Source of the DNA: a virus
Lineage: Duplodnaviria > Heunggongvirae > Uroviricota > Caudoviricetes
Strand: one strand, 5' to 3'
Length of the DNA stretch: 64,000 bases
IMG/VR virus record: IMGVR_UViG_3300010413_000002
Location: 1 to 64,000 of that record
Shown here: in pieces, positions 6,668 through 62,288 of the stretch
How positions within the stretch are numbered: the first letter of the stretch is position 1
Layout: every line of letters begins with the position of its first letter
Notes under the pieces: model-generated
Seen by the model: only the letters and a program-made list of their open reading frames with translations
Told to the model about the DNA's origin: nothing
The model's database searches: none
Made by a program: the position numbers and the translations under genes

Positions 6668-7990
6668 TTAAATTAGATTTTTTCTTATAAAACTTAATAA
6701 ATCTTCTTTGTTGTTTTCAACTTTATCATCAAGAACTGCATTAAATAATTCTTGTAGAATAAATCCTATAATTTTATGTCCTTTTTTTAATCCAATAAGT
6801 TTCATTATATCGTTTCCATTAATATTTAAATCTTTTACAGAAAATGCTGGAATATAGTTTTTTACTTCATTTATTCTTTTTAAAATTGTTTTCCAGTAGC
6901 TTAATTTCTTTAACCTTTTCTTTCTGTTTGCTTTTCTATCAGCTATTTTTAATCTAAGAATATCCTTATAATTAACATTGTCATTTTCTAATGCTACTAA
7001 CCATCTTCTTATAGCTTTGTCTTTACTTGTTGGCATTATGTGCCACATATGAAGCTTTATAATATTGCATACTTTGTCTATAAATTCATTACTGAATTTT
7101 AAATTTAATAAAGTTTGTTTTGCATAACTACAACTATATTTTTCGTGATTATGAAATATTAATTTATCGTTTTTTATTTGAAACTTACTTTTGCCTACAT
7201 CGTGTAGCAATCCCGCCATTTTTACTATAGGATATTTACTAGAAATATAAGAACAAGTATCTAAACAATGTTCATAAACTGTTTCATTATGATGTTCTCC
7301 GCCATCTAAATACTTAATCTTTTTTAAACAAGGAAAAACAGTTCCAAGAATTCCTGTTTTATCTAAATAAATACAAAATTGCTTTAAGTTCTTGATGGAT
7401 TTTATTATTTCTTTATTTATTCTTTCTTTAGGAATCGACTTTATTCTTTTTTTAGAACCGCTTTTTTTCAAAAGTTCTTTTAAACTAGAGTCTTCTATTT
7501 CAAAATTTAGAATTGAAGCAAATCTAAAAGCTCTTAATATTCTTACTGGATCTTCTTTTATTCTTTCAGAAGGTTTTCCTACAAATTTGATTAGTTTATG
7601 CTGTATATGACTTTGTCCTCCAAAATAATCAAAATATTCATCCTTGAAAGGATCATAAGCTATTGCATTTATTGTAAAATCTCTTCGACTACAATCTTCT
7701 TTTAGTGTTTCAACGTAATTACAAACTGGTTTTCCTATAATATCGTATCTTTCTCCTCGAAAAGTTGCGACTTCAATTCCATCTACGAGCATCACTTTAA
7801 ATTGTTCTCCTACGTGAGAAAGTTTTCTATCTTTGAATATTTGTTTTATTTTGTTTGGTTTTGCGTTTGTAACAATATCATAATCTTTTGGTTCTAAACC
7901 AAGAAGTTTGTCTCTGGTGCAACCGCCTATGAAAAAAGCTTGATAACCTTTGTTTTGAAGTATTTTTATGATTTCAAGTTCTTTTTTCAT
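6668..7990 (-). CDS. cca: CCA-adding enzyme (tRNA nucleotidyltransferase) with C-terminal HD domain.
   Basis: FFIGGCTRDKLLGLEPKDYDIVT (pol-beta nucleotidyltransferase head, GGxxRDxLLGxxxxDxDxxT) and LLHDVGK (HD motif). Confidence 0.8.
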   Translation of the reverse strand: MKKELEIIKILQNKGYQAFFIGGCTRDKLLGLEPKDYDIVTNAKPNKIKQIFKDRKLSHVGEQFKVMLVDGIEVATFRGERYDIIGKPVCNYVETLKEDCSRRDFTINAIAYDPFKDEYFDYFGGQSHIQHKLIKFVGKPSERIKEDPVRILRAFRFASILNFEIEDSSLKELLKKSGSKKRIKSIPKERINKEIIKSIKNLKQFCIYLDKTGILGTVFPCLKKIKYLDGGEHHNETVYEHCLDTCSYISSKYPIVKMAGLLHDVGKSKFQIKNDKLIFHNHEKYSCSYAKQTLLNLKFSNEFIDKVCNIIKLHMWHIMPTSKDKAIRRWLVALENDNVNYKDILRLKIADRKANRKKRLKKLSYWKTILKRINEVKNYIPAFSVKDLNINGNDIMKLIGLKKGHKIIGFILQELFNAVLDDKVENNKEDLLSFIRKNLI

Positions 7991-9652: not shown

Positions 9653-10187
9653 TATTTCTTTTGTTTTTATTTTTATAAATAATTTTTTCTTGAATTTTAC
9701 CAGCAGTCCAACAGTTTATTTTAATACAAACTTCAACTGCCTCTCTAGGAGATTTATTTAAATACAATGCTGTTTTAGCTTCTCTAAATCCAGCACCATT
9801 ACTGTCAAATTCTCCTTCTTTTATTTCATAAATATCTAAATTATTCCATATATGATATAACTTTTCTTGATAATAAAAAAAATAATTATTTTCTAAAATT
9901 TTATCATCTTTGAATGTTTTTGAAAATTCTGAAATAATCCATTTTCTAAATTCCACAAAAAATCTTAATATATCCAATCTTTTATTTCCTTCTGGTTTTC
10001 TATTTTGACAAAATAATTCAAACTGATTAGATTCAGAACAAGAACCAGTACTACAAAAAATTATATTATTTACTTCAAATAATTTTTGAAAATTTTCATC
10101 TTTTGCACCACTATTTCCATAAAAGCCTCCGCTATCAGTAGCTATTTCTATTCTATCTTTATAATTTTTTACTGCTAATACAGTCAT
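9645..10187 (-). CDS. Hypothetical protein; possible Ntn-hydrolase (HslV/proteasome-like) fold.
   Basis: The N-terminus MTVLAVKNYKDRIEIATDSGG resembles the Thr1 N-terminus of proteasome beta / HslV. A later NGAGFREAKTALYL resembles the GSGxxxAxxA motif. Confidence 0.35.
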   Translation of the reverse strand: MTVLAVKNYKDRIEIATDSGGFYGNSGAKDENFQKLFEVNNIIFCSTGSCSESNQFELFCQNRKPEGNKRLDILRFFVEFRKWIISEFSKTFKDDKILENNYFFYYQEKLYHIWNNLDIYEIKEGEFDSNGAGFREAKTALYLNKSPREAVEVCIKINCWTAGKIQEKIIYKNKNKRNNE

Positions 10188-27974: not shown

Positions 27975-28402
27975 AAGATTTTAAGTTGTGTTATATTGAA
28001 GGAAATTTTGCTTATTTTACTACGCAAGATTTAGATAAGCAAACTGGAGATGATTGGAACGATGCTCCTTATGATCTCAATGCTGGAGAACCATATACTC
28101 CAACTATTTATTATCCCTCTGGAAAAAAAGATCCTAGAGATTGGACAAATGGAAAACCAAATTGGGAAATTAAAAAATTAGTTTGGGAAGGAGATTTTGA
28201 CGAAGCGAAAAATATTTATATGGAAGATATAAATTGTATTTATTGTGTAGATGATATAAATAACAAAAAAGTTCCTTGGTTAGAATATCAAGGATATTCT
28301 AATGAAGATCTTGAGATTAAAATATGGGCAGGATGTTCAATTAAAGAGTTTAAAAAATTAATTAAAAAAGGCGGTGGAAAAATTTATGTGGAGGAAAAAT
28401 GA
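27971..28402 (+). CDS. Hypothetical protein.
   Basis: 143-aa ORF. Confidence 0.45.
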   Translation: MKDFKLCYIEGNFAYFTTQDLDKQTGDDWNDAPYDLNAGEPYTPTIYYPSGKKDPRDWTNGKPNWEIKKLVWEGDFDEAKNIYMEDINCIYCVDDINNKKVPWLEYQGYSNEDLEIKIWAGCSIKEFKKLIKKGGGKIYVEEK

Positions 28403-30966
28403 AAACTAAATTAAATATAGTATATGTCTTAGTAGGACCAACATCTTGTGGAAAAAGTTATTTTTGTAACGAAATGAAACAAAAGCTTACTAAACAAGGA
28501 TTAAGAACCGTTATCTTATCTTCTGATGAAGAAAGAAGAAATACATTTGGCGAAAATCTCCATAAATACAATAAACAAATGCTTCAGTCAAGCGAAAAAG
28601 CATTTAATATCTTATATTATAAATTGGAACAATTAATGAAATATCCTAATAGACCTCATTTTATATTTGTTGATACTACAGGTTTATCAGAAGATTTTAG
28701 AAACGATATTATCAATATAGTAAAAAAGACAAATTATAACCTTGGTCTTATTGTATTTACATATAAAGAAAAGTCTGAATACTATAAACACATCTCAGAA
28801 GAAGACTTAGAAAAAGGTAAACATATTATAGATAGACATATAACAAGATTAAAGAAAGACGTATTTAAAACACTTTCTAAGAAAAAATATAATTTTTGTC
28901 ATAATATAACTGAAAAAGATTTTTCAAATATAAAGTTTGAAATTGAAGATTTAGACTTATATAAATCAACCTTTTTAACAGATAAGGAAAATTATCTTGT
29001 TATAAGCGACATTCATGGACATTTTGATGAATTTAAGAAATTATTAGAATTGAACGAAATCAAAATAGAAAAAGACAGGATAGCTTCCTCCCCCTATAGC
29101 AAAATAATAATAAATGGGGATACAATAGATAAAGGTAAGCAAAGCAAAGAAGTCTTAAAGTTTCTTTTAAACAACAAAGAACATTTTAGGTTTGTCATAG
29201 GAAATCACGAAAATTTTATATATAAGTATCTAAAAGGAGAAATAGATATTAATAAGTTGAATAAGGAAATTTTAAAACAGTTTTCTTCAGCGGAGCAATA
29301 TAAAGACGATAAAGAGTTTTTTTTATTGTTGGAAGAATATATAAATTTATGCGTTCCTTTCTTACAGAACAGTTATTTTATAGTAAATCATGCTCCTTGC
29401 AAAAATAAGTATTTAGGATTGCTAAACTTTAAGTCTTTAAAGAAACAAAGAAACTACTTTATAAACGATAGAGAAAAAGCTTTAGAAGAATTAAGGTTTG
29501 TACAAGAACAAAGTCGAGGTAACTACCCACTTCATATATTCGGGCATATTGCAGTTAAGAAAGTTTCAAAAATAAAGAATGAGATTTTTACAGATACTGG
29601 TGCTGGAAATAATCAAAAATTAACTGCTTTAGAATTATCTTACAAAGAATTTAAGGACTCATATTATACAAAAAACATATCGGTCGATTGCGAAGGAGAA
29701 CCCAAACAAGAAGGTTTAGAAATAGAAAAAAAGAAAGAAGTAGATTTTGACCTATTAGAACCAAAAGAAAGAGGAAGAATTTATTGGGCAATAGATAACA
29801 AAGTTCAATTCATATCAGGTACAATGCCTCCTTCTGCTTCAAGTGATGAATATGGATTAGAAAGTTTAGAAACTGCTATATCCTACTTCGAAAGTAAAGA
29901 CTACAAATTAGAAGATTTAGTATTCCAACCAAAGTATATGGGATCAAGATGTACGCTTTATCTAAATAGAGACATTGAAAAGTGTATGATGACTTCAAGA
30001 AAGGGCTATAGGATTAGGCGTTTATATGATAAAAACGGAGAAGAGATTACTGATTTTGTTGAAATATATAACAAATTTTTAGCAAAACCAAAACTAAAGA
30101 AACTATTAGAAGACGAAACAATAGAAACTATTGTTTTAGATGGCGAACTAATGCCTTGGTATGCTCTAGGAAGAAATCTAATAGAAAACACCTATGAAAA
30201 AGTTGCTGATTGCATAGAAAATGAACTAGAACTTTTAAAGGAAACTAATTTTGAAGAAGCTTTAAGTAAAGTTGATAAAGCATACAAAGATTTTAATTTT
30301 GAAGAACGACATAAAAACGAAAAAGCTAAAGATTTAGAAGCTGAAATAGGATACACTATCTATAAAACTTTTTTAAATTATAAGAATAGCAATTTTGCTC
30401 CTTTAAAAGATGTTGAAAGTAATTTAAAAGAATTTAAAAATCAAATAAGCCTATATGGCTCTAAAGAGGAAATAGATTATAAACCTTTTGATATGCTTAA
30501 AATTATTTACAAAGACGGAACTGAAAAAGTTAAAAATCCAAAAAAGGATAGTTCGCATGATGTTTTTTGGAAAGTAAATAGTAATGGATGCCAAAAATTC
30601 TCCAAAATAGAAGAATTAAAAGAATGGTATGAAATTATAACTAAAGATTTAAAATTAGAGGGCTGTGTGATTAAACCAGAGTTCTTAAAAGATGATTGTA
30701 TACCTTATATGAAAGTTCGTAATCCTAGGTACTTAAAATTAATCTACGGATATGATTATGATGATAAGGATAACTTAGAATATCTAATTAGAAACAAAAG
30801 AACAAAAAAGAAATGTCAAGTTGCAATAGAACAATTTAAATTGGGGCTAAAGTTGTTAAATTTCAAGGTAGACGAAATTACTAAAGAAAACGAGGACTAT
30901 AAACAAACTGTTGCCAAAATAATCTTTGAGGAAAAGAAAGAGACTGAAATTGACCCAAGATTGTAA
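28399..30966 (+). CDS. Trifunctional Pnkp-like RNA-repair enzyme: 5'-OH polynucleotide kinase, metallophosphoesterase (2',3'-phosphatase) and C-terminal ligase-like domain.
   Basis: P-loop VYVLVGPTSCGKSYF at the N-terminus. Central calcineurin-type motifs ISDIHGH, INGDTIDKG, IGNHE. C-terminal region with KYMGSR (candidate KxxG adenylyltransferase motif I). 855 aa, the same domain order and size as bacterial Pnkp. Confidence 0.7.
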   Translation: MKTKLNIVYVLVGPTSCGKSYFCNEMKQKLTKQGLRTVILSSDEERRNTFGENLHKYNKQMLQSSEKAFNILYYKLEQLMKYPNRPHFIFVDTTGLSEDFRNDIINIVKKTNYNLGLIVFTYKEKSEYYKHISEEDLEKGKHIIDRHITRLKKDVFKTLSKKKYNFCHNITEKDFSNIKFEIEDLDLYKSTFLTDKENYLVISDIHGHFDEFKKLLELNEIKIEKDRIASSPYSKIIINGDTIDKGKQSKEVLKFLLNNKEHFRFVIGNHENFIYKYLKGEIDINKLNKEILKQFSSAEQYKDDKEFFLLLEEYINLCVPFLQNSYFIVNHAPCKNKYLGLLNFKSLKKQRNYFINDREKALEELRFVQEQSRGNYPLHIFGHIAVKKVSKIKNEIFTDTGAGNNQKLTALELSYKEFKDSYYTKNISVDCEGEPKQEGLEIEKKKEVDFDLLEPKERGRIYWAIDNKVQFISGTMPPSASSDEYGLESLETAISYFESKDYKLEDLVFQPKYMGSRCTLYLNRDIEKCMMTSRKGYRIRRLYDKNGEEITDFVEIYNKFLAKPKLKKLLEDETIETIVLDGELMPWYALGRNLIENTYEKVADCIENELELLKETNFEEALSKVDKAYKDFNFEERHKNEKAKDLEAEIGYTIYKTFLNYKNSNFAPLKDVESNLKEFKNQISLYGSKEEIDYKPFDMLKIIYKDGTEKVKNPKKDSSHDVFWKVNSNGCQKFSKIEELKEWYEIITKDLKLEGCVIKPEFLKDDCIPYMKVRNPRYLKLIYGYDYDDKDNLEYLIRNKRTKKKCQVAIEQFKLGLKLLNFKVDEITKENEDYKQTVAKIIFEEKKETEIDPRL

Positions 30967-37092: not shown

Positions 37093-37355
37093 ATTTCTAA
37101 AAAACTTCCCTTTTAAATTTTAATATATATAATATATCTTATGGCAATTTAAACGTTGTATATAATAGATGATATGGACACGGGAGCATTACCCGTCTCT
37201 TCCACCAATTGATTATAAGGGGGAGAAATAGATTTGACATACATTCAAAGATACAATCTTTGCTCAGAGTGATTTCTGTGAAAGTCAAAAAAATAACTGG
37301 AGAAGAAATTCTTTTAGCCGCCTAAAAATTCAAAATTTTAAGACGGAACGGTTTG

Positions 37356-37388
37356 GGAGAGCCGTTTTACCAAACTCTCCTTTGTTTT
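37356..37388. terminator. Bidirectional rho-independent terminator between convergent blocks.
   Basis: GGAGAG-ccgttttaccaaa-CTCTCC stem-loop followed by TTTGTTTT. It sits at the stop of the minus-strand tdk and downstream of the plus block. Confidence 0.5.
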
Positions 37389-40461: not shown

Positions 40462-40787
40462 AATTTTAGATTATTTTTTAGGATAAAATATCCTATCATT
40501 AGAAAAAACATGTTGGCTCAGTTTTTTATAGGTTTATATATTAAGATTAATTCAATTAATCTTTGTAAAGTAAAAATGTATTTTTATTTAAATGTAAAAA
40601 TGATATTTAAGATTTTTTTTCATATATTTTATTTTTATTAAATTAATACAACTTTCAAATTTAAGATTAGCATTTTTATTTTTAAATGTCAAGCGTTTTT
40701 GAATATTTTTTTGATGATTGTTGTAAATTTATATGTCACAAAAGAATAATTCTATAATATATTAAATATAGTTTTGTTTTTTTTATT

Positions 40788-42839: not shown

Positions 42840-43118
42840 TTAATATTCAACATTACTTAGTTTTATACTTTTGCACTTTTTGCATTTATAAACCGCTACT
42901 TTTTTTGTGGGTGATTGTAAATAACAATCTAATTTGTATTCGTGAAAATGTGGCGGAAAAAATCCATAACTATAAAAAAATACTAATAAAAACGAAGAAA
43001 TTATATTAATACCAAAAAAAGTTATAGTATCATATCTAAAAATTGCTCTTAAAACTATATTGACAATCCAAATTAACAAAAATATAATACTTGTTATTTT
43101 TTTACTTTTTTCAGCCAT
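42840..43118 (-). CDS. Small membrane protein with C-terminal Cys pair.
   Basis: Two transmembrane segments plus CKKCKS. Confidence 0.4.
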   Translation of the reverse strand: MAEKSKKITSIIFLLIWIVNIVLRAIFRYDTITFFGINIISSFLLVFFYSYGFFPPHFHEYKLDCYLQSPTKKVAVYKCKKCKSIKLSNVEY

Positions 43119-43137: not shown

Positions 43138-43524
43138 TTATCTCATAAACTTTATTAAATTCTTAATAGTATCAATAAAATTTTTCTTCTTTTCTTTATC
43201 TTTTACATCTTGCAAAAGTCTACTTATAATTAAAATTTCTTTGTTTAAATCATCGTAATCAATGTTTTCAATAATGTTAGAATTATTGTTTTCATTGTTA
43301 TTATCTAAACCATCAAAAAAGTATATAATAGGAACTTTTAAAATTTTTGAAAGTTTGTAAAGCTTTCCAGCAGAGATTCTATTCTCTCCCTTTTCATACT
43401 TTTGTATTTGTTGAAAAGTAATTTTCATTAATTTTCCTACTTTTTGTTGGGATAAGCCCAAATTAATTCTTCTTAATTTTAACTTTTTTCCAACATGAAT
43501 GTCAATGTTTGTTACTCTTTTCAT
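43138..43524 (-). CDS. XRE-family (Cro/CI-type) HTH transcriptional regulator.
   Basis: LKLRRINLGLSQQKVGKLMKITFQQIQKYEKGENRISAGKLYKLSKIL. Confidence 0.75.
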   Translation of the reverse strand: MKRVTNIDIHVGKKLKLRRINLGLSQQKVGKLMKITFQQIQKYEKGENRISAGKLYKLSKILKVPIIYFFDGLDNNNENNNSNIIENIDYDDLNKEILIISRLLQDVKDKEKKKNFIDTIKNLIKFMR

Positions 43525-45842: not shown

Positions 45843-45892
45843 TTTAATCTATTATGAATTATTCTTTATTTTATAAAAAGAATTATAACTTA

Positions 45893-45941
45893 AAGAAAAT
45901 AATTGTCAAGTAAAATCCGACAGAAAAATATTTTTTAAAAA
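45893..45941 (-). promoter_or_regulatory. Leftward sigma70-type promoter (TTGACA-16-TATAAT) plus conserved upstream cassette.
   Basis: Minus-strand TTGACA at + coordinates 45915-45920 and TATAAT at 45893-45898. The 35-nt block 45907-45941 is identical to 49159-49193. Confidence 0.55.
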
Positions 45942-45967
45942 AAAGTAAGTTATACACAAAAAAAACT

Positions 45968-46101
45968 TGACAATTAAAAATGTTTAATATATAATTATAT
46001 TAGATTACAAATTGTGGCTCAGTTTTAATCTATACAACTTTAATCTCCGAAAGAGATTTTTTTTCATAGAGGATCGATATTTATTATTGATCCTTTTTTT
46101 G
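45968..46101 (+). ncRNA. Candidate ~100-nt small RNA: promoter, two hairpins and an intrinsic terminator.
   Basis: TTGACA (45968-45973), 17-nt spacer, TATAAT (45991-45996). Hairpin AATCTC-CGAAA-GAGATT. Terminator AGGATCGAT-atttatt-ATTGATCCT plus a T7 run ending about 46101. No ORF. Confidence 0.45.
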
Positions 46102-46114
46102 TTTTTGCAAAAAA

Positions 46115-46285
46115 ATAAGAGGAGATTTTAATTCCCCTCTATTATCGTCACACTATCCCGTACGAACCAATTTACATTGGTATTCAAGGATAGATAGTTA
46201 ATTTTGCTATCTATCCACTATCACTACTACTATCTAATGCAATTGCATTAATACTAATATATAATATCTTTTTAAAAAGTCAAGA
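46115..46285 (-). ncRNA. Candidate minus-strand small RNA convergent with the plus-strand sRNA.
   Basis: Leftward promoter (TTGACT-16/17-TATATT on the minus strand, about 46250-46285). 10-bp perfect hairpin GGATAGATAG-9nt-CTATCTATCC (46189-46217). Minus-strand terminator AGAGGGG-aattaaaat-CTCCTCT plus a U-run (about 46115-46148). Confidence 0.4.
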
Positions 46286-46474
46286 AAAATTTGAGTTTTT
46301 AAAAAACCATATTAAAAATATTATAATAATTGCAAAAATCATATTTCCTCCTTATAGAGTGAGAATAGTAGTAGTGCATAAAAAAATAACACTCTCACTC
46401 CAAAAAACTAGATTTTTATTAAATTAGTTTCTATTTAATTATAGCTAATAAAAATAAAAAATCAAGATGTTTTC

Positions 46475-46759: not shown

Positions 46760-46993
46760 TATTTATTATATTGAGAATTTTATTTAAAATCAATAAAAGA
46801 AGAATTTATCTTTTGTTTTTTCTTTTTAAATGTTCCTTAAAAAAGTCTACCGCAGTTCTAAAAAAATGACTTCTTGAAGAGAAATTATTTTTTTCTTTTA
46901 AAGAATCAATTTCTTTTATTTCTTCTTTAGAAGCTCTTAAATATAATTGTTCTGTTTTTGGATTTTCAATTTTTACTCGTCCCAATTTGCCTC

Positions 46994-49019: not shown

Positions 49020-49924
49020 AAATAATATGTAGTTTACTCATTGTTTTTTAAGTTTGTTAAAAGAATAATAGCAATAAAAATCTAGTATAAAAATATATCT
49101 CAATAATTTAATTAATCATAAAATTGCTATTACTCTTAAACTATACTATACAATATAAAAAATAATTGTCAAGTAAAATCCGACAGAAAAATAATTATTG
49201 GATTTTTCTTGTTTTTTAAAAAATTTTTTGTTATTCTTCTTTTGATTATTTTAGTTAATTATCTAAATATAGTAGCTTTTGTTTCTTGCACGTCTTATAA
49301 TTTCCATATTTGACTCCTTCAAAAGCTACTACTCTTCATAAAAAAATAAGATATTTTCACAGAAAAAATGTTAGTTATGACTTCCGTAATTTAAAAAATA
49401 TAGTAATATTAGAATAGAAATAATTATTTTCTTAGAGAAACTGGCTCGCCTGCAAAGCACAGAGAGAAAAAGAATCCAGCTACAACAGCTATTCTTTTGG
49501 TGTCGACATATAAGAGCCATAAGATAACATAAAAAAACTTATATGCCGACAAATGTTGAATGAGTAATTCTTTATTTTTATAAAAGATATTTTCTTTAAA
49601 GTCAAGCAAAAAATAAAAAAGCTCTTGAAAGAACATATTTGGCAATATCTCTTCTCTCAAAAGCCTTTTTTTCAGGACTTGATTATATACAACAGAGTCA
49701 TATATAACTTAATTATAAGTAATACTTTTTTAAAAGTCAAGAAATATTGAATATTTTTAAAAACTTAGGCTCTATTCCCGCTCTTGCTAAGGAGATAAAG
49801 CCTATATAAAAAATTTCAACAAACAAAATTGCAATGTATCATTCCTCTAATAAAAAGCATTTTTGTTTGCTATATAAATTATAGTATAAAGATTTTTAAT
49901 TGTCAAGAAAAATCATAAAAATAC

Positions 49925-49953
49925 TTGACACTTTCAAAAAAGTATTGTATAAT
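49925..49953 (+). promoter_or_regulatory. Perfect-consensus sigma70 promoter (TTGACA-17-TATAAT) firing rightward into a non-coding region.
   Basis: TTGACA 49925-49930, 17-nt spacer, TATAAT 49948-49953. Back-to-back with a leftward TTGACA-17-TATAAT promoter at about 49870-49898. Confidence 0.6.
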
Positions 49954-49959
49954 ATTATA

Positions 49960-50420
49960 AGTATAATAAGTAGCTCAGGGAAAGAGTTCTTGGTAGACAA
50001 GAGGGTCATAGGTTAAAGTCCTATCTTACTTATACTAGAAAGATAGATTAAAGATAGCCTTGAAGATTTTAAGAGTCAATCAGCGTTCAGTACAAACGCA
50101 TATCTTTCGCAGAATGGTACAAAGAGTTTAATAATTGAACACATTGGGTTAAAAATTACTACATTAAGCAAGAGATAACTACTCAGTAATTAAGTAGTAT
50201 TTGTTAGTAAATTTCACTAATTCTTTGTACCAAAAAAACTAGAGAGTAGCCAAAATGCTATATCCAAAAAGGAAACACAAGTATTAAAGGTAGTTGTAAA
50301 AAAAGTTTGATAAATAATGCAAAAACTACATTGTGAAGAAAATATTGCTTAAAGGTATCCTAAATCATTTAGTGCAAACTCGGCAGTATATTCCCTCTCT
50401 AGTTAAAAAACTAGACAATA
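49960..50420 (+). ncRNA. Candidate structured non-coding RNA (~450 nt) downstream of the consensus promoter.
   Basis: No ORF of 60 aa or more on either strand across 49661-50448. Long-range complementarity AAACTAGAGAG (about 50237) with CTCTCTAGTT (about 50398). Local hairpins ACTACT-cagtaatta-AGTAGT and TCTAGTT-aaaaa-AACTAGA. Confidence 0.35.
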
Positions 50421-50448
50421 AAGAAAAAATTATTTAAAATAAAATTTT

Positions 50449-50895: not shown

Positions 50896-51386
50896 AGTTT
50901 AATACTACCAACAAAACATTAATTTGTCAAGCAAAATCAAACAGAAAAAACCTTAAACAAAGGAAGGAAAGATAAAAAAGTTGTGAGTATAGTAAAAGGT
51001 TTATGTAAAAAGCTAAAAATTGTAGTAATAGCTACATTTCGGTAGTGAGTATTGTTCTTCTTTTAATTTTTAATCAAAGTCTTTATTAATAGGATTCTTT
51101 GCATTGTATACAAGATTTAAAAAACTACAAAATTGTAGTAGAACGTTATCTAAAATAGAGAAAAGTTATGTGTTGAGGTTGTATAGGTTGATGAATAAAA
51201 GGTTTGCGTGATTTTTTTAGTTACTAACTTTTTGGGTGGTTTTTGGGGTTTTTTCAAAATTTGAATAGGTGTAATAAAAATATTACACTAAAATGAAAAA
51301 AATCTTTTTATTTTCAAAAAAATTGCAAGTTTTCTCGTTAAAAGTGTGTATTTTTCTAAAAATCTTCATTTTTCTAAATCCTTTAT

Positions 51387-51638
51387 TTATAGGCATCGAG
51401 GCAACTTCTCTCACTACGAAAACACCCCAAAAAAAGACAAAAAAATATCCTGTATTTTTTCTCAAAACACAAGATTAAATTGCATATTACTATACTTAAA
51501 TGTATTATATTTGATACTTTATATTTGATAATTTTAGATTAAAGCCTAAAAAAGGCTTACAACTTTAGCCAAAAATAGCTAAAATCGTAAACCCCTATGA
51601 ATAAAGGAACGAGGCAACTTCTCTCACTACGAAAACAC
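51387..51638. repeat. Perfect 29-nt direct repeat pair (CGAGGCAACTTCTCTCACTACGAAAACAC) separated by 194 nt.
   Basis: Copies at 51387-51415 and 51610-51638. Each is preceded by CCTTTATTTATAGG or its near reverse complement CCTATGAATAAAGG. Only spurious overlapping mini-ORFs lie here. Confidence 0.5.
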
Positions 51639-51645
51639 TTTATTT

Positions 51646-61899: not shown

Positions 61900-62005
61900 T
61901 TATTCAATGGCAAAAGAAATTCCTATAAAAAAAATAATTTAGGTTTATTGATTATTTCTCGCCATGAAAATAAATAGACAAAAAAAGTTCCTATATATTA
62001 GGAAA

Positions 62006-62107
62006 ACAGGGGTACGATGGTTCAAATCCATCCGCTATCTTAAGATGGCGTGGCAGAGTGGTTATGCACCTGTGTGTATTACTTTTCGTCTATTAAAAAA
62101 ACACAGG
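62006..62107 (+). tRNA. tRNA-like element alpha with apparent permuted order. The 3' half (anticodon-stem 3' strand, variable loop, T-arm, acceptor 3' strand) lies upstream of its matching 5' half (acceptor 5' strand, D-arm, anticodon-stem 5' strand).
   Basis: 3' half 62006-62040: ACAGG-GGTAC-GATGG-TTCAAAT-CCATC-CGCTATC-T. TAA linker. 5' half 62044-62073: GATGGCG-TG-GCAG-AGTGGTT-ATGC-A-CCTGT. The acceptor strands GATGGCG and CGCTATC pair 7/7 (one G-U). CCTGT pairs with ACAGG. The extended stem 62069-62075 with 62101-62107 encloses a 25-nt loop. Confidence 0.4.
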
Positions 62108-62132
62108 AAGTTCCTATTTTAATGCTCGATAA

Positions 62133-62240
62133 GCAGGAGGTCGTAGGTTCGAGTCCTACCTTCCGCATTTGCGGTTGTAGCTCAGTTGGTAGAGCGCCTT
62201 TATGTACTTCCCGTTTTTATTAATGATAAAGGCAGTTCCT
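62133..62240 (+). tRNA. tRNA-like element beta. A canonical tRNA 3' half (62133-62167) is followed by a canonical 5' half (62171-62201), but the halves do not pair well with each other. Possibly a degenerate, split or trans-paired tRNA.
   Basis: 3' half GCAGG-AGGTC-GTAGG-TTCGAGT-CCTAC-CTTCCGC-A. 5' half GCGGTTG-TA-GCTC-AGTTGGTA-GAGC-G-CCTTT. Acceptor complementarity is only 5/7. An 8-bp stem GCCTTTAT / ATAAAGGC encloses a 22-nt loop. Confidence 0.3.
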
Positions 62241-62288
62241 ATAAATCGTTTCACAAAAGATTACTGCCCATCAAAACAAAGGAAAATT

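Follow-up and report, generated by a model that had tools for sequence, protein, structure and literature searches.

Two predicted convergent RNA units with separate terminators in an intergenic island of an orphan phage

We analyzed a 64,000-nt stretch of DNA from an uncultured phage (the window; positions 1 to 64,000 of IMG/VR record IMGVR_UViG_3300010413_000002, Caudoviricetes) and focused on a 632-nt intergenic island at 45843-46474. The island lies within a leftward gene block and is among the largest gaps of the window. Its best explanation, to which we give an even chance, is a junction of transcription units in an early, leftward-transcribed region of an orphan phage. We hold with the same confidence that two convergent units, separately terminated, work here independently of each other. 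On the plus strand, a consensus promoter of the main family would fire rightward to give a non-coding RNA of about 100 nt. This may be a stable RNA that acts in trans by base pairing with a target outside the island, in a phage or host message. On the minus strand, a leftward operon would run from a ribbon-helix-helix (RHH) gene through an 80-aa gene and a 20-codon open reading frame (ORF) for a hydrophobic peptide into a 170-nt structured 3′ untranslated region (UTR) and a terminator. A long-range 12-bp helix and a helix over the Shine-Dalgarno (SD) sequence could close the ribosome-binding site of the peptide once the 3′ UTR has been transcribed. A second type of promoter (class B) at the stop of the ORF could additionally yield the 3′ UTR as an RNA of about 137 nt. 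The back-to-back terminators would prevent the transcripts from overlapping and would also shield the next gene, for which a separate promoter is present. An earlier sequence-only reading had proposed a convergent pair of small RNAs in this island; its positions were 1 nt too high throughout, and all coordinates given here are those of the window.

Promoter families and the plus-strand unit

The promoters of the island and the parts of the plus-strand unit are listed here.

45967-45995, plus: class A promoter of the plus RNA; TTGACA (45967-45972), 17-nt spacer, TATAAT (45990-45995); 12 of 12 consensus matches
45882-45909, minus: class A promoter of the leftward 187-aa gene; TTGACA, 16-nt spacer, TATAAT; 12 of 12 matches; divergent twin of the plus promoter
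46256-46283, minus: class B promoter; TTGACT (46283-46278), 16-nt spacer, TATATT (46261-46256); 10 of 12 matches
46002-46104, plus: predicted non-coding RNA of about 100 nt, with promoter, fold and terminator
46002-46031, plus: 5′ hairpin, which begins at the predicted +1
46032-46041, plus: unpaired 10-nt linker, AUACAACUUU
46042-46058, plus: hairpin 2, AATCTC-CGAAA-GAGATT
46059-46067, plus: U-rich stretch
46068-46107, plus: intrinsic terminator; 12-bp stem with a 5-nt loop (46068-46096), then a T-run

The plus promoter had been described as TTGACA and TATAAT with an exact 17-nt spacer, and it is present in this form with all 12 consensus matches, 1 nt below its earlier position. It is one of two such 12/12 sites that a consensus scan found between 44.5 and 47.5 kb, and it carries the extended motif CTTGACAATTAAAAAT. 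The window holds 5 perfect promoters, against 0.18 expected from first-order Markov simulations, and all 5 lie between 43 and 50 kb. The class A motif CTTGACAATTA occurs in 6 copies (45967+, 45909-, 49172-, 49906-, 56260- and 56613-), against 0.1 expected. The plus promoter and the promoter at 49906(-) are identical at 20 of 21 nt (95%; self-BLAST). The divergent twin promoters of the island have in common a 12-nt perfect inverted repeat. Class A promoters are presumably read by a host RNA polymerase of the sigma-70 type.

The leftward promoter of the minus strand was confirmed at 46283-46256. Its class B motif, TTCTTGACTTTT, is found in 3 copies against 0.12 expected (46283-, 49740- and 15797-). 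A 20-nt stretch is 95% identical between the 46283(-) and 49740(-) promoters, and 15 nt are identical between 46283(-) and 15797(-), the latter copy heading a leftward operon. Taken together, perfect promoters and extended promoter motifs are 25- to 60-fold above expectation. Both island promoters are probably genuine, and the case is stronger for the plus promoter. We also observed a 35-nt exact repeat (45896-45930 = 49159-49193) that contains a class A promoter and the upstream sequence CTGTCGGATTTTAC. Contigs from independent short-read assemblies (Logan, SRR14699974) break exactly at this promoter repeat.

The plus terminator was borne out as a 12-bp stem at 46068-46096 with a T-run 3′ of it; the sequence that follows the stem is TTTTTTTGTTTTT. 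The sequence of the capped hairpin reported earlier is present at 46042-46058, but its loop is a CGAAA pentaloop and not a GNRA tetraloop. The fold of the complete plus RNA has an energy of -24.9 kcal/mol (z = -3.98), and none of 200 shuffles was as stable. Between 44.5 and 47.5 kb, there are 2 terminator-like sites where shuffles predict 0.2. Both are in the island, back to back, and both are among the 12 best of the 63 hairpin-plus-T-run sites that our own terminator scan found in the window.

We found no SD-led ORF in the plus RNA. Just two frames are present, one of 39 codons that starts with TTG and continues through the terminator and, on the opposite strand, one of 20 codons; neither has an SD sequence. 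The statement that neither transcript contains an ORF stands for the transcripts as they had been delimited, in which no SD-led ORF was found. The whole 64 kb was then scanned for compact units (a promoter with at least 10 of 12 matches, a terminator 40-260 nt further on and no SD-led ORF). Four units emerged. The one at 10005(+) is a weak site; the others are the plus RNA (~97 nt), the minus RNA (~137 nt) and a unit at 49740(-). Only those at 45967(+), 46283(-) and 49740(-) have a convincing promoter, and all three have a hairpin at the predicted +1. In the third unit (49740-49615, minus), a class B promoter (11/12) precedes a predicted RNA of about 90 nt that starts with a hairpin; the terminator has a 19-bp stem and a T-run (z = -4.71). 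Homology to the minus-RNA unit is seen in the promoter region and not in the RNA body.

The earlier description of the plus strand as a promoter, a non-coding RNA of about 100 nt and a terminator thus holds well in silico, given the promoter family, the strong terminator, the +1 hairpin and the lack of an SD-led ORF. We regard the plus unit as a credible stand-alone small-RNA gene, well supported yet unproven; its transcription, the stability of its RNA and action in trans are what we infer from these elements.

A more modest explanation is that the island is transcription punctuation only. The promoters and terminators would be real and the short RNAs functionless by-products, with the plus unit serving as an insulator or for transcriptional interference at the operon end and the minus unit as a plain 3′ UTR with its terminator. 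The back-to-back unidirectional terminators are placed exactly between the operon end and the next promoter, as this would require, and the 12-nt inverted repeat of the twin promoters suggests the duplication of a promoter module. The weakly structured body of the plus RNA and the failure to find either a target or conservation (see below) point the same way. However, a promoter with a perfect consensus would give abundant RNA, and an insulator needs no 66 nt of RNA ahead of its terminator. The +1 hairpin and unpaired linker recur in all three compact units, which resembles selection for stable RNAs. We consider punctuation alone doubtful.

The minus-strand message, its small ORF and a long-range helix

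The features of the minus-strand message are followed here by those of the genes around it.

46355-46402, minus: 12-bp leader hairpin (46402-46391 / 46366-46355), which competes with the anti-SD pairing
46222-46376, minus: long-range 12-bp helix; 5′ arm CACUACUACUAU (46376-46365) and 3′ arm AUAGUAGUAGUG (46233-46222); brackets the SD sequence and the ORF
46353-46280, minus: SD sequence AAGGAGG (46353-46347), 4 nt, ATG, and the 20-codon ORF (46342-46280) that encodes MIFAIIIIFLIWFFKNSNFS
46141-46250, minus: structured RNA body, a 3′ UTR and/or a separate RNA of about 137 nt
46250-46235, minus: palindromic 5′ hairpin
46216-46188, minus: perfect 10-bp hairpin
46181-46166 and 46165-46145, minus: two further hairpins
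46108-46140, minus: intrinsic terminator; 8-bp stem AGAGGGG..CTCCTCT (46140-46118), then UAUUUUUUU
46438-46465, minus: weak promoter-like site, TTGATT, 16-nt spacer, TATAAT; 10 of 12 matches; just past the stop of the 80-aa gene and of background-frequency quality
46985-46806, minus: RHH-family gene, 59 aa; Pfam RHH_1 (ribbon-helix-helix, CopG family), 21.3 bits against a cut-off of 20.5
45842-45279, minus: 187-aa gene, the left neighbour of the island
43138-43524, minus: Cro/CI-type helix-turn-helix (HTH) gene near the island

The island had been described as free of ORFs. This does not hold, because a 20-codon ORF led by an SD sequence is present on the minus strand at 46342-46280. Its TGA lies inside the -35 element (TTGACT) of the class B promoter. 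Counting both strands, the window has 14 copies of the motif AAGGAGG. Of the 13 besides this one, 11 are 3-6 nt ahead of the start of an ORF of at least 49 aa, so that it is a good predictor of real starts in this genome. The SD analysis supports the translation of the small ORF, which we infer from it. The predicted peptide has 20 residues, 13 of them consecutive and hydrophobic, and ends in the tail KNSNFS with a single charged residue (Lys). A family search returned only Pfam DUF5976 at E = 0.12 and no known toxin family, and PADLOC reported none. The RHH gene is the third gene upstream of the minus terminator, ahead of the 80-aa gene and the 20-codon ORF, and leftward transcription probably follows this order into the structured 3′ UTR and the terminator. 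The weak site at 46438-46465 is a possible dedicated promoter for the small-ORF message.

The 5′ arm of the long-range helix is located 11 nt upstream of the SD sequence and the 3′ arm downstream of the ORF. When the island was dinucleotide-shuffled 300 times, just 2 of the shuffles contained an inverted repeat of 12 nt with at least 3 G/C. Since this perfect repeat joins the leader to the 3′ UTR, it supports their presence in one RNA. In the predicted fold of a truncated (nascent) transcript, the leader hairpin forms and the SD sequence is unpaired. In the full-length fold, where the 3′ arm is available, the long-range helix takes shape, and next to it the SD sequence is covered by a UC-CUCU/GGAG-GA helix. 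Such a structural switch would allow translation early and close the site later.

A second small-ORF cassette was observed at about 49270-49340 (minus). Its leader reads TTATTTTTTTATG ... AAGGAG ... AAATATG and has the same motif as that of the small ORF in the island. A 13-bp helix there brackets the SD sequence GAAGGAG and a 14-codon ORF (MEIIRRARNKSYYI), and the layout parallels that of the 20-codon ORF.

Other elements of the minus strand were found as they had been described: the terminator, with its stem at 46140-46118 and a T-run, and the perfect 10-bp hairpin at 46188-46216. The RNA from 46250 to 46108 folds into five hairpins (z = -3.88; 0 of 200 shuffles as stable), and its z-score is -3.20 without the terminator. 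The claim of an independent small RNA on this strand is partly upheld. The twin of its promoter at 49740 heads a short, terminated unit without an ORF, but the same stretch also forms the upstream message's 3′ UTR. Support for an independent small RNA is weaker on the minus strand than on the plus strand.

Within the minus-strand RNA body there are 7 GATAG/CTATC pentamers in 82 nt (46153-46234), 6 of them within 60 nt, against a window average of 0.09 per 50 nt. It is twice as dense as any other such cluster in the window. The next best has 3 copies at 50021-50080, within an ORF-poor stretch past a tRNA-like element.

This cluster, the 10-bp inverted repeat and the 16-bp palindrome TAATGCAATTGCATTA could instead be read as protein-bound DNA, that is, as operators or as a site for replication, partition or packaging, with an RHH or HTH protein, for example, as the binder. 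The pentamer density and the position of the perfect palindrome, directly downstream of the class B -10 element, fit such a role, and genes for both kinds of protein are at hand (RHH at 46806-46985 in the same operon, HTH at 43138-43524). As a candidate regulator, the RHH protein could act on the class B promoters or the palindromes. However, one hairpin accounts for 4 of the 7 pentamers with its two arms, and a search for iteron-like arrays, direct or tandem, gave nothing but AT-rich runs of low score. The GC-skew turning points of the window, at ~16 kb and ~40 kb, follow gene orientation and not the island. Protein binding would also leave the plus promoter-terminator unit unexplained, and it is compatible with transcription and hence not exclusive. 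The sequence-only reading had named a protein-bound packaging or origin site as what would displace its RNA genes; neither repeat arrays nor a skew inflection was found at the island. We judge a role as a protein-bound site to be highly improbable.

Independence of the two units, targets and relatives

The convergent geometry described earlier is correct, whereas a functional link between the two RNAs was not found: they neither overlap nor show complementarity above that of shuffles. Both terminators are unidirectional. They end at 46096 and 46118, and the transcripts are about 10 nt apart. A search with the whole RNAs gave only gapped duplexes, the best of -27.6 kcal/mol being weaker than the shuffle mean of -35.3. 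The best local duplex has -18.1 kcal/mol, against a shuffle mean of -17.1 ± 2.2. The lack of overlap and of duplexes above shuffles thus suggests that the two RNAs are independent units. Antisense or toxin-antitoxin (TA) pairing between them was rejected, the duplexes being no better than those of shuffles.

The locus could also be a type I TA-like module. The 20-residue peptide would then be a membrane toxin, silenced by the 5′-3′ helix and controlled by an RNA antitoxin. Candidates for the antitoxin are the plus RNA, acting as antisense by read-through of its terminator, and the ~137-nt class B RNA, in which the 3′ arm of the helix would pair with the leader in trans. Prophages of AT-rich Gram-positive bacteria commonly carry type I modules, typically in a convergent arrangement (PMC6563280). 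Their toxins are small (<60 aa) hydrophobic peptides with a transmembrane segment and a charged C-terminus, 28-60 residues being typical in Gram-positives (PMC6563280). The island offers a small hydrophobic ORF with a canonical SD sequence, a structured message whose distant parts pair and whose SD sequence can be occluded, and a convergent small RNA with a strong promoter. However, the defining test failed for the plus RNA as terminated, which has neither overlap with the peptide message nor complementarity to it above shuffles. The same-strand 137-nt RNA carries a 12-nt complement to the leader, and this is not the defined type I arrangement. At 20 residues, the peptide is below the typical Gram-positive range, it has a single Lys and no charged tail, it matches no known toxin family, and its hydrophobicity may reflect T-rich codons. 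We find a type I module unlikely.

A more elaborate scheme would combine these elements. The island and its partial copy at 49.3 kb would be small-ORF cassettes under a mode of control without a described precedent, in which the membrane peptide is made only from the nascent message, which is then locked by the long-range helix and the anti-SD helix. A same-strand RNA, started at the promoter within the final codons of the ORF, would supply the locking arm in trans as antitoxin or repressor. The convergent plus RNA would be a separate riboregulator whose 5′ end copies tRNA positions 7-15, in a phage that has an apparent permuted tmRNA, tRNA-like pieces and an RNA-repair enzyme as well. We consider this scheme quite unlikely.

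The tRNA resemblance lies in the plus-RNA 5′ sequence, a recurrence of which had been reported at 40511. The recurrence exists (40511-40525; 2 mismatches in 15 nt, 12 nt exact), but 31 of 100 shuffles match at least as well. Its core, GTGGCTCAG, is a generic motif of tRNA positions 7-15 (D-arm). A gapped pattern of the promoter and GTGGCTCAG retrieved six bacterial tRNA genes and one unrelated locus from metagenomes, and no relatives. The gap at 40.5 kb and the island have only four 11-mers in common. As evidence of anything, this recurrence is weak.

We return to the reading of two independent units. An Rfam scan, which the earlier reading had suggested as a check, gave no gathering-level match in the island and none at the E-value level (Rfam 15). 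The best sub-threshold match was that of the terminator hairpin to a plastid 3′ UTR model, with 22.9 bits where 48.4 are needed. Searches for relatives were equally negative. There was no DNA-level match by blastn to 50,697 phage records and none by tblastn between the 187-aa neighbor and phages. Protein-anchored scans of IMG/VR with the 187-aa and glycosyltransferase genes gave none, and no relative emerged when IMG/VR, JGI metagenomes and GTDB genomes were scanned by DNA pattern or with protein anchors. A 24-mer had 0 matches in JGI metagenomes, and the back-translated peptide core had 0 in IMG/VR. A 19-mer of the plus RNA matched, in IMG/VR, only coding sequences of two unrelated phages that encode a C-terminal Cys-rich peptide, CPDCGSVLIRENGC. 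The promoter motif had 14 single matches in IMG/VR, which we rejected as chance matches without protein similarity. The CCA-adding enzyme, used as a host identifier against one genome for each of 185,579 species, returned nothing. Two Logan contigs from SRR14699974 match the window at 100% identity and hence add no variation.

Several of these points, and others, weigh against the preferred reading. The phage has no relatives in any collection searched, and the 239-aa and 80-aa right neighbors have no homologues among 5.8 billion protein clusters. Target prediction for the plus RNA, which had also been suggested as a check, gave no significant hit among 112 translation-initiation regions of the window. 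The best duplex, of -25.3 kcal/mol, compares with a shuffle mean of -23.5 ± 2.6 and is equaled by 25% of the shuffles. Without its terminator, the plus RNA is modestly structured (z = -1.94). The minus promoter has 10/12 matches, and in DNA as AT-rich as this, sites with at least 9/12 are about as frequent as expected by chance (27 against 24.9). A 20-codon open frame after an ATG is estimated to arise by chance in about 16% of cases in this composition. The hydrophobicity of the peptide follows from T-rich codons and may be their mere reflection.

The best specific target lead for the plus RNA is an 11-nt perfect complement to its linker (TATACAACTTT, 46031-46041). It is located directly 5′ of the AAGGAGG of the ORF at 14923-13979, and we estimate a chance expectation of ~0.15-0.8 for such a match.

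The absence of a homologue or an Rfam family and the chance frequency of promoter-like sites with at least 9/12 matches are also what would be expected if the elements were chance products of AT-rich sequence that yield no discrete RNAs. This explanation has to contend with the perfect promoters, extended motifs and terminators, all of which are above expectation. In a variant, the strong promoter ahead of a perfect hairpin would produce an RNA mimic, such as an RNA anti-CRISPR that copies the CRISPR repeat of the host. The pattern of the 10-bp hairpin, GGATAGATAG-N9-CTATCTATCC, had no exact match in the 185,579 species (one genome each) or in IMG/VR, a result that applies to this hairpin and to exact matching only. 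Chance or mimicry appears very unlikely.

Genomic setting and comparison with known systems

The window has a G+C content of ~25% and short, tightly packed ORFs in three strand blocks. It encodes proteins typical of phage replication and recombination (a DnaB-like helicase, a second helicase, a RecE-like exonuclease, a thymidine kinase and a CCA-adding enzyme), and the DnaB has at most 34% identity to any known phage protein. The 187-aa gene to the left of the island has a single homologue (66% identity) among the 5.8 billion protein clusters. This homologue (L004 10001-10564) is on a 15.6-kb phage contig with terminase and small-terminase-like genes, in another neighborhood and with no intergenic island. 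Such a distribution is typical of a mobile accessory gene. Near the HTH gene, we observed a perfect consensus promoter at 43060-43088 (plus) that points rightward into the gene, antisense to it, and a terminator-like hairpin at 43447-43461 (plus). This unit is a candidate for a long antisense RNA to a repressor-like gene.

Other parts of the window are rich in RNA elements. At 37102-37383 (plus), Rfam gives gathering-level, full-length matches to the permuted and the alpha-type two-piece transfer-messenger RNA (tmRNA) models (101.4 and 98.9 bits), where ARAGORN calls none; the stretch looks like a phage-borne permuted tmRNA gene. The stretch at 49925-50440 (plus) opens with a perfect promoter (49925-49953). 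Right after it comes a tRNA-like element (49964-50032; Rfam tRNA, 33 bits, E = 1.3e-4) with an anticodon loop of only 5 nt and no ARAGORN call, and then ~400 nt of ORF-poor sequence with 27% G+C. This may be a larger non-coding RNA. The region 61985-62260 (plus) contains permuted tRNA halves: a T-arm and 3′ acceptor strand (~62016-62050) lie upstream of a 5′ half (62044-62075), and the acceptor strands pair. The same region has the motif GTTCCTAT three times and, at 62135-62200, a partial match to the tRNA-like domain of the Y RNA-like YrlA (33.1 bits, E = 8e-5, below gathering). An 855-aa Pnkp-type protein (28399-30966, plus) has kinase, phosphatase and ligase domains (PNKP_ligase, 2.2e-26) for RNA repair, and the CCA-adding enzyme (6668-7990, minus) belongs to RNA maturation. 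The tmRNA, the tRNA-like elements and these enzymes together suggest a phage that is heavily invested against RNA damage. Two terminator-like hairpins lie in a gene-poor gap at 50896-51645 (minus), one at 51445 and the other, the strongest of the window, with an 18-bp stem (-22.8 kcal/mol) and a T-run from 51553.

If transcribed as predicted, the island would provide regulatory RNAs and a micro-peptide from a phage lineage without sequenced relatives. Post-transcriptional control in lineages of this kind is almost unexplored. A ready map of early transcription in this genome comes from the two repeated promoter families. The locus is of modest practical value, phage small RNAs being a known class already, and the small ORF with its long-range helix and the neighboring RNA-rich islands are better leads than a convergent pair. 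We see the locus as a plausible, fairly ordinary phage regulatory locus, neither RNA of which could be placed in a described family.

Phages and prophages encode small RNAs with their own promoter and intrinsic terminator, such as lambda OOP RNA, P22 sar RNA and DicF. OOP and sar are cis-antisense to a neighboring gene. In Pseudomonas phages, non-coding RNAs from 5′ UTRs, 3′ UTRs and antisense promoters have been documented (PMC10914365). The plus unit resembles all of these as a compact series of promoter, hairpins and terminator of about 100 nt, without an ORF, among early or regulatory genes and with predicted use of the host polymerase. Unlike OOP and sar, the plus RNA overlaps no gene, has no sequence or Rfam relationship to them and is known here from sequence alone.

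For the minus RNA, the closest counterparts are small RNAs derived from 3′ UTRs. Enterobacterial MicL and DapZ arise from internal promoters. The ncRNA1 and ncRNA2 of phage PAK_P3 are 3′ UTR-derived by processing (PMC10914365). The predicted minus RNA likewise uses the terminator of the upstream message and has its promoter at the very end of the upstream ORF. It differs in that this ORF has only 20 codons and in that the RNA would hold a helix arm that pairs with the leader of its own message.

Long-distance 5′-3′ interactions are a property of the hok and aapA1 messages. Type I modules of Gram-positive prophages include txpA/RatA, bsrG/SR4 and yonT/SR6, and Clostridioides difficile has CD0977.1/RCd11 (PMC6563280, PMC5848175). 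The island lacks the overlap or complementarity of these modules, the homology to a toxin family and the longer peptide with a charged tail. It is like them in its hydrophobic small ORF with a strong SD sequence, the long-range pairing that occludes this SD sequence, the convergent small RNA gene and the mobile-element setting.

In the immI region of P22, the repressors Arc and Mnt, both of the RHH type, are accompanied by sar, a small antisense RNA that overlaps the ribosome-binding site of ant. In the island there is no such overlap, and no homology was found beyond the RHH fold family. The two loci are nonetheless alike in that the operon ending at the island includes an RHH-family gene, with a small RNA gene predicted to be transcribed against it.

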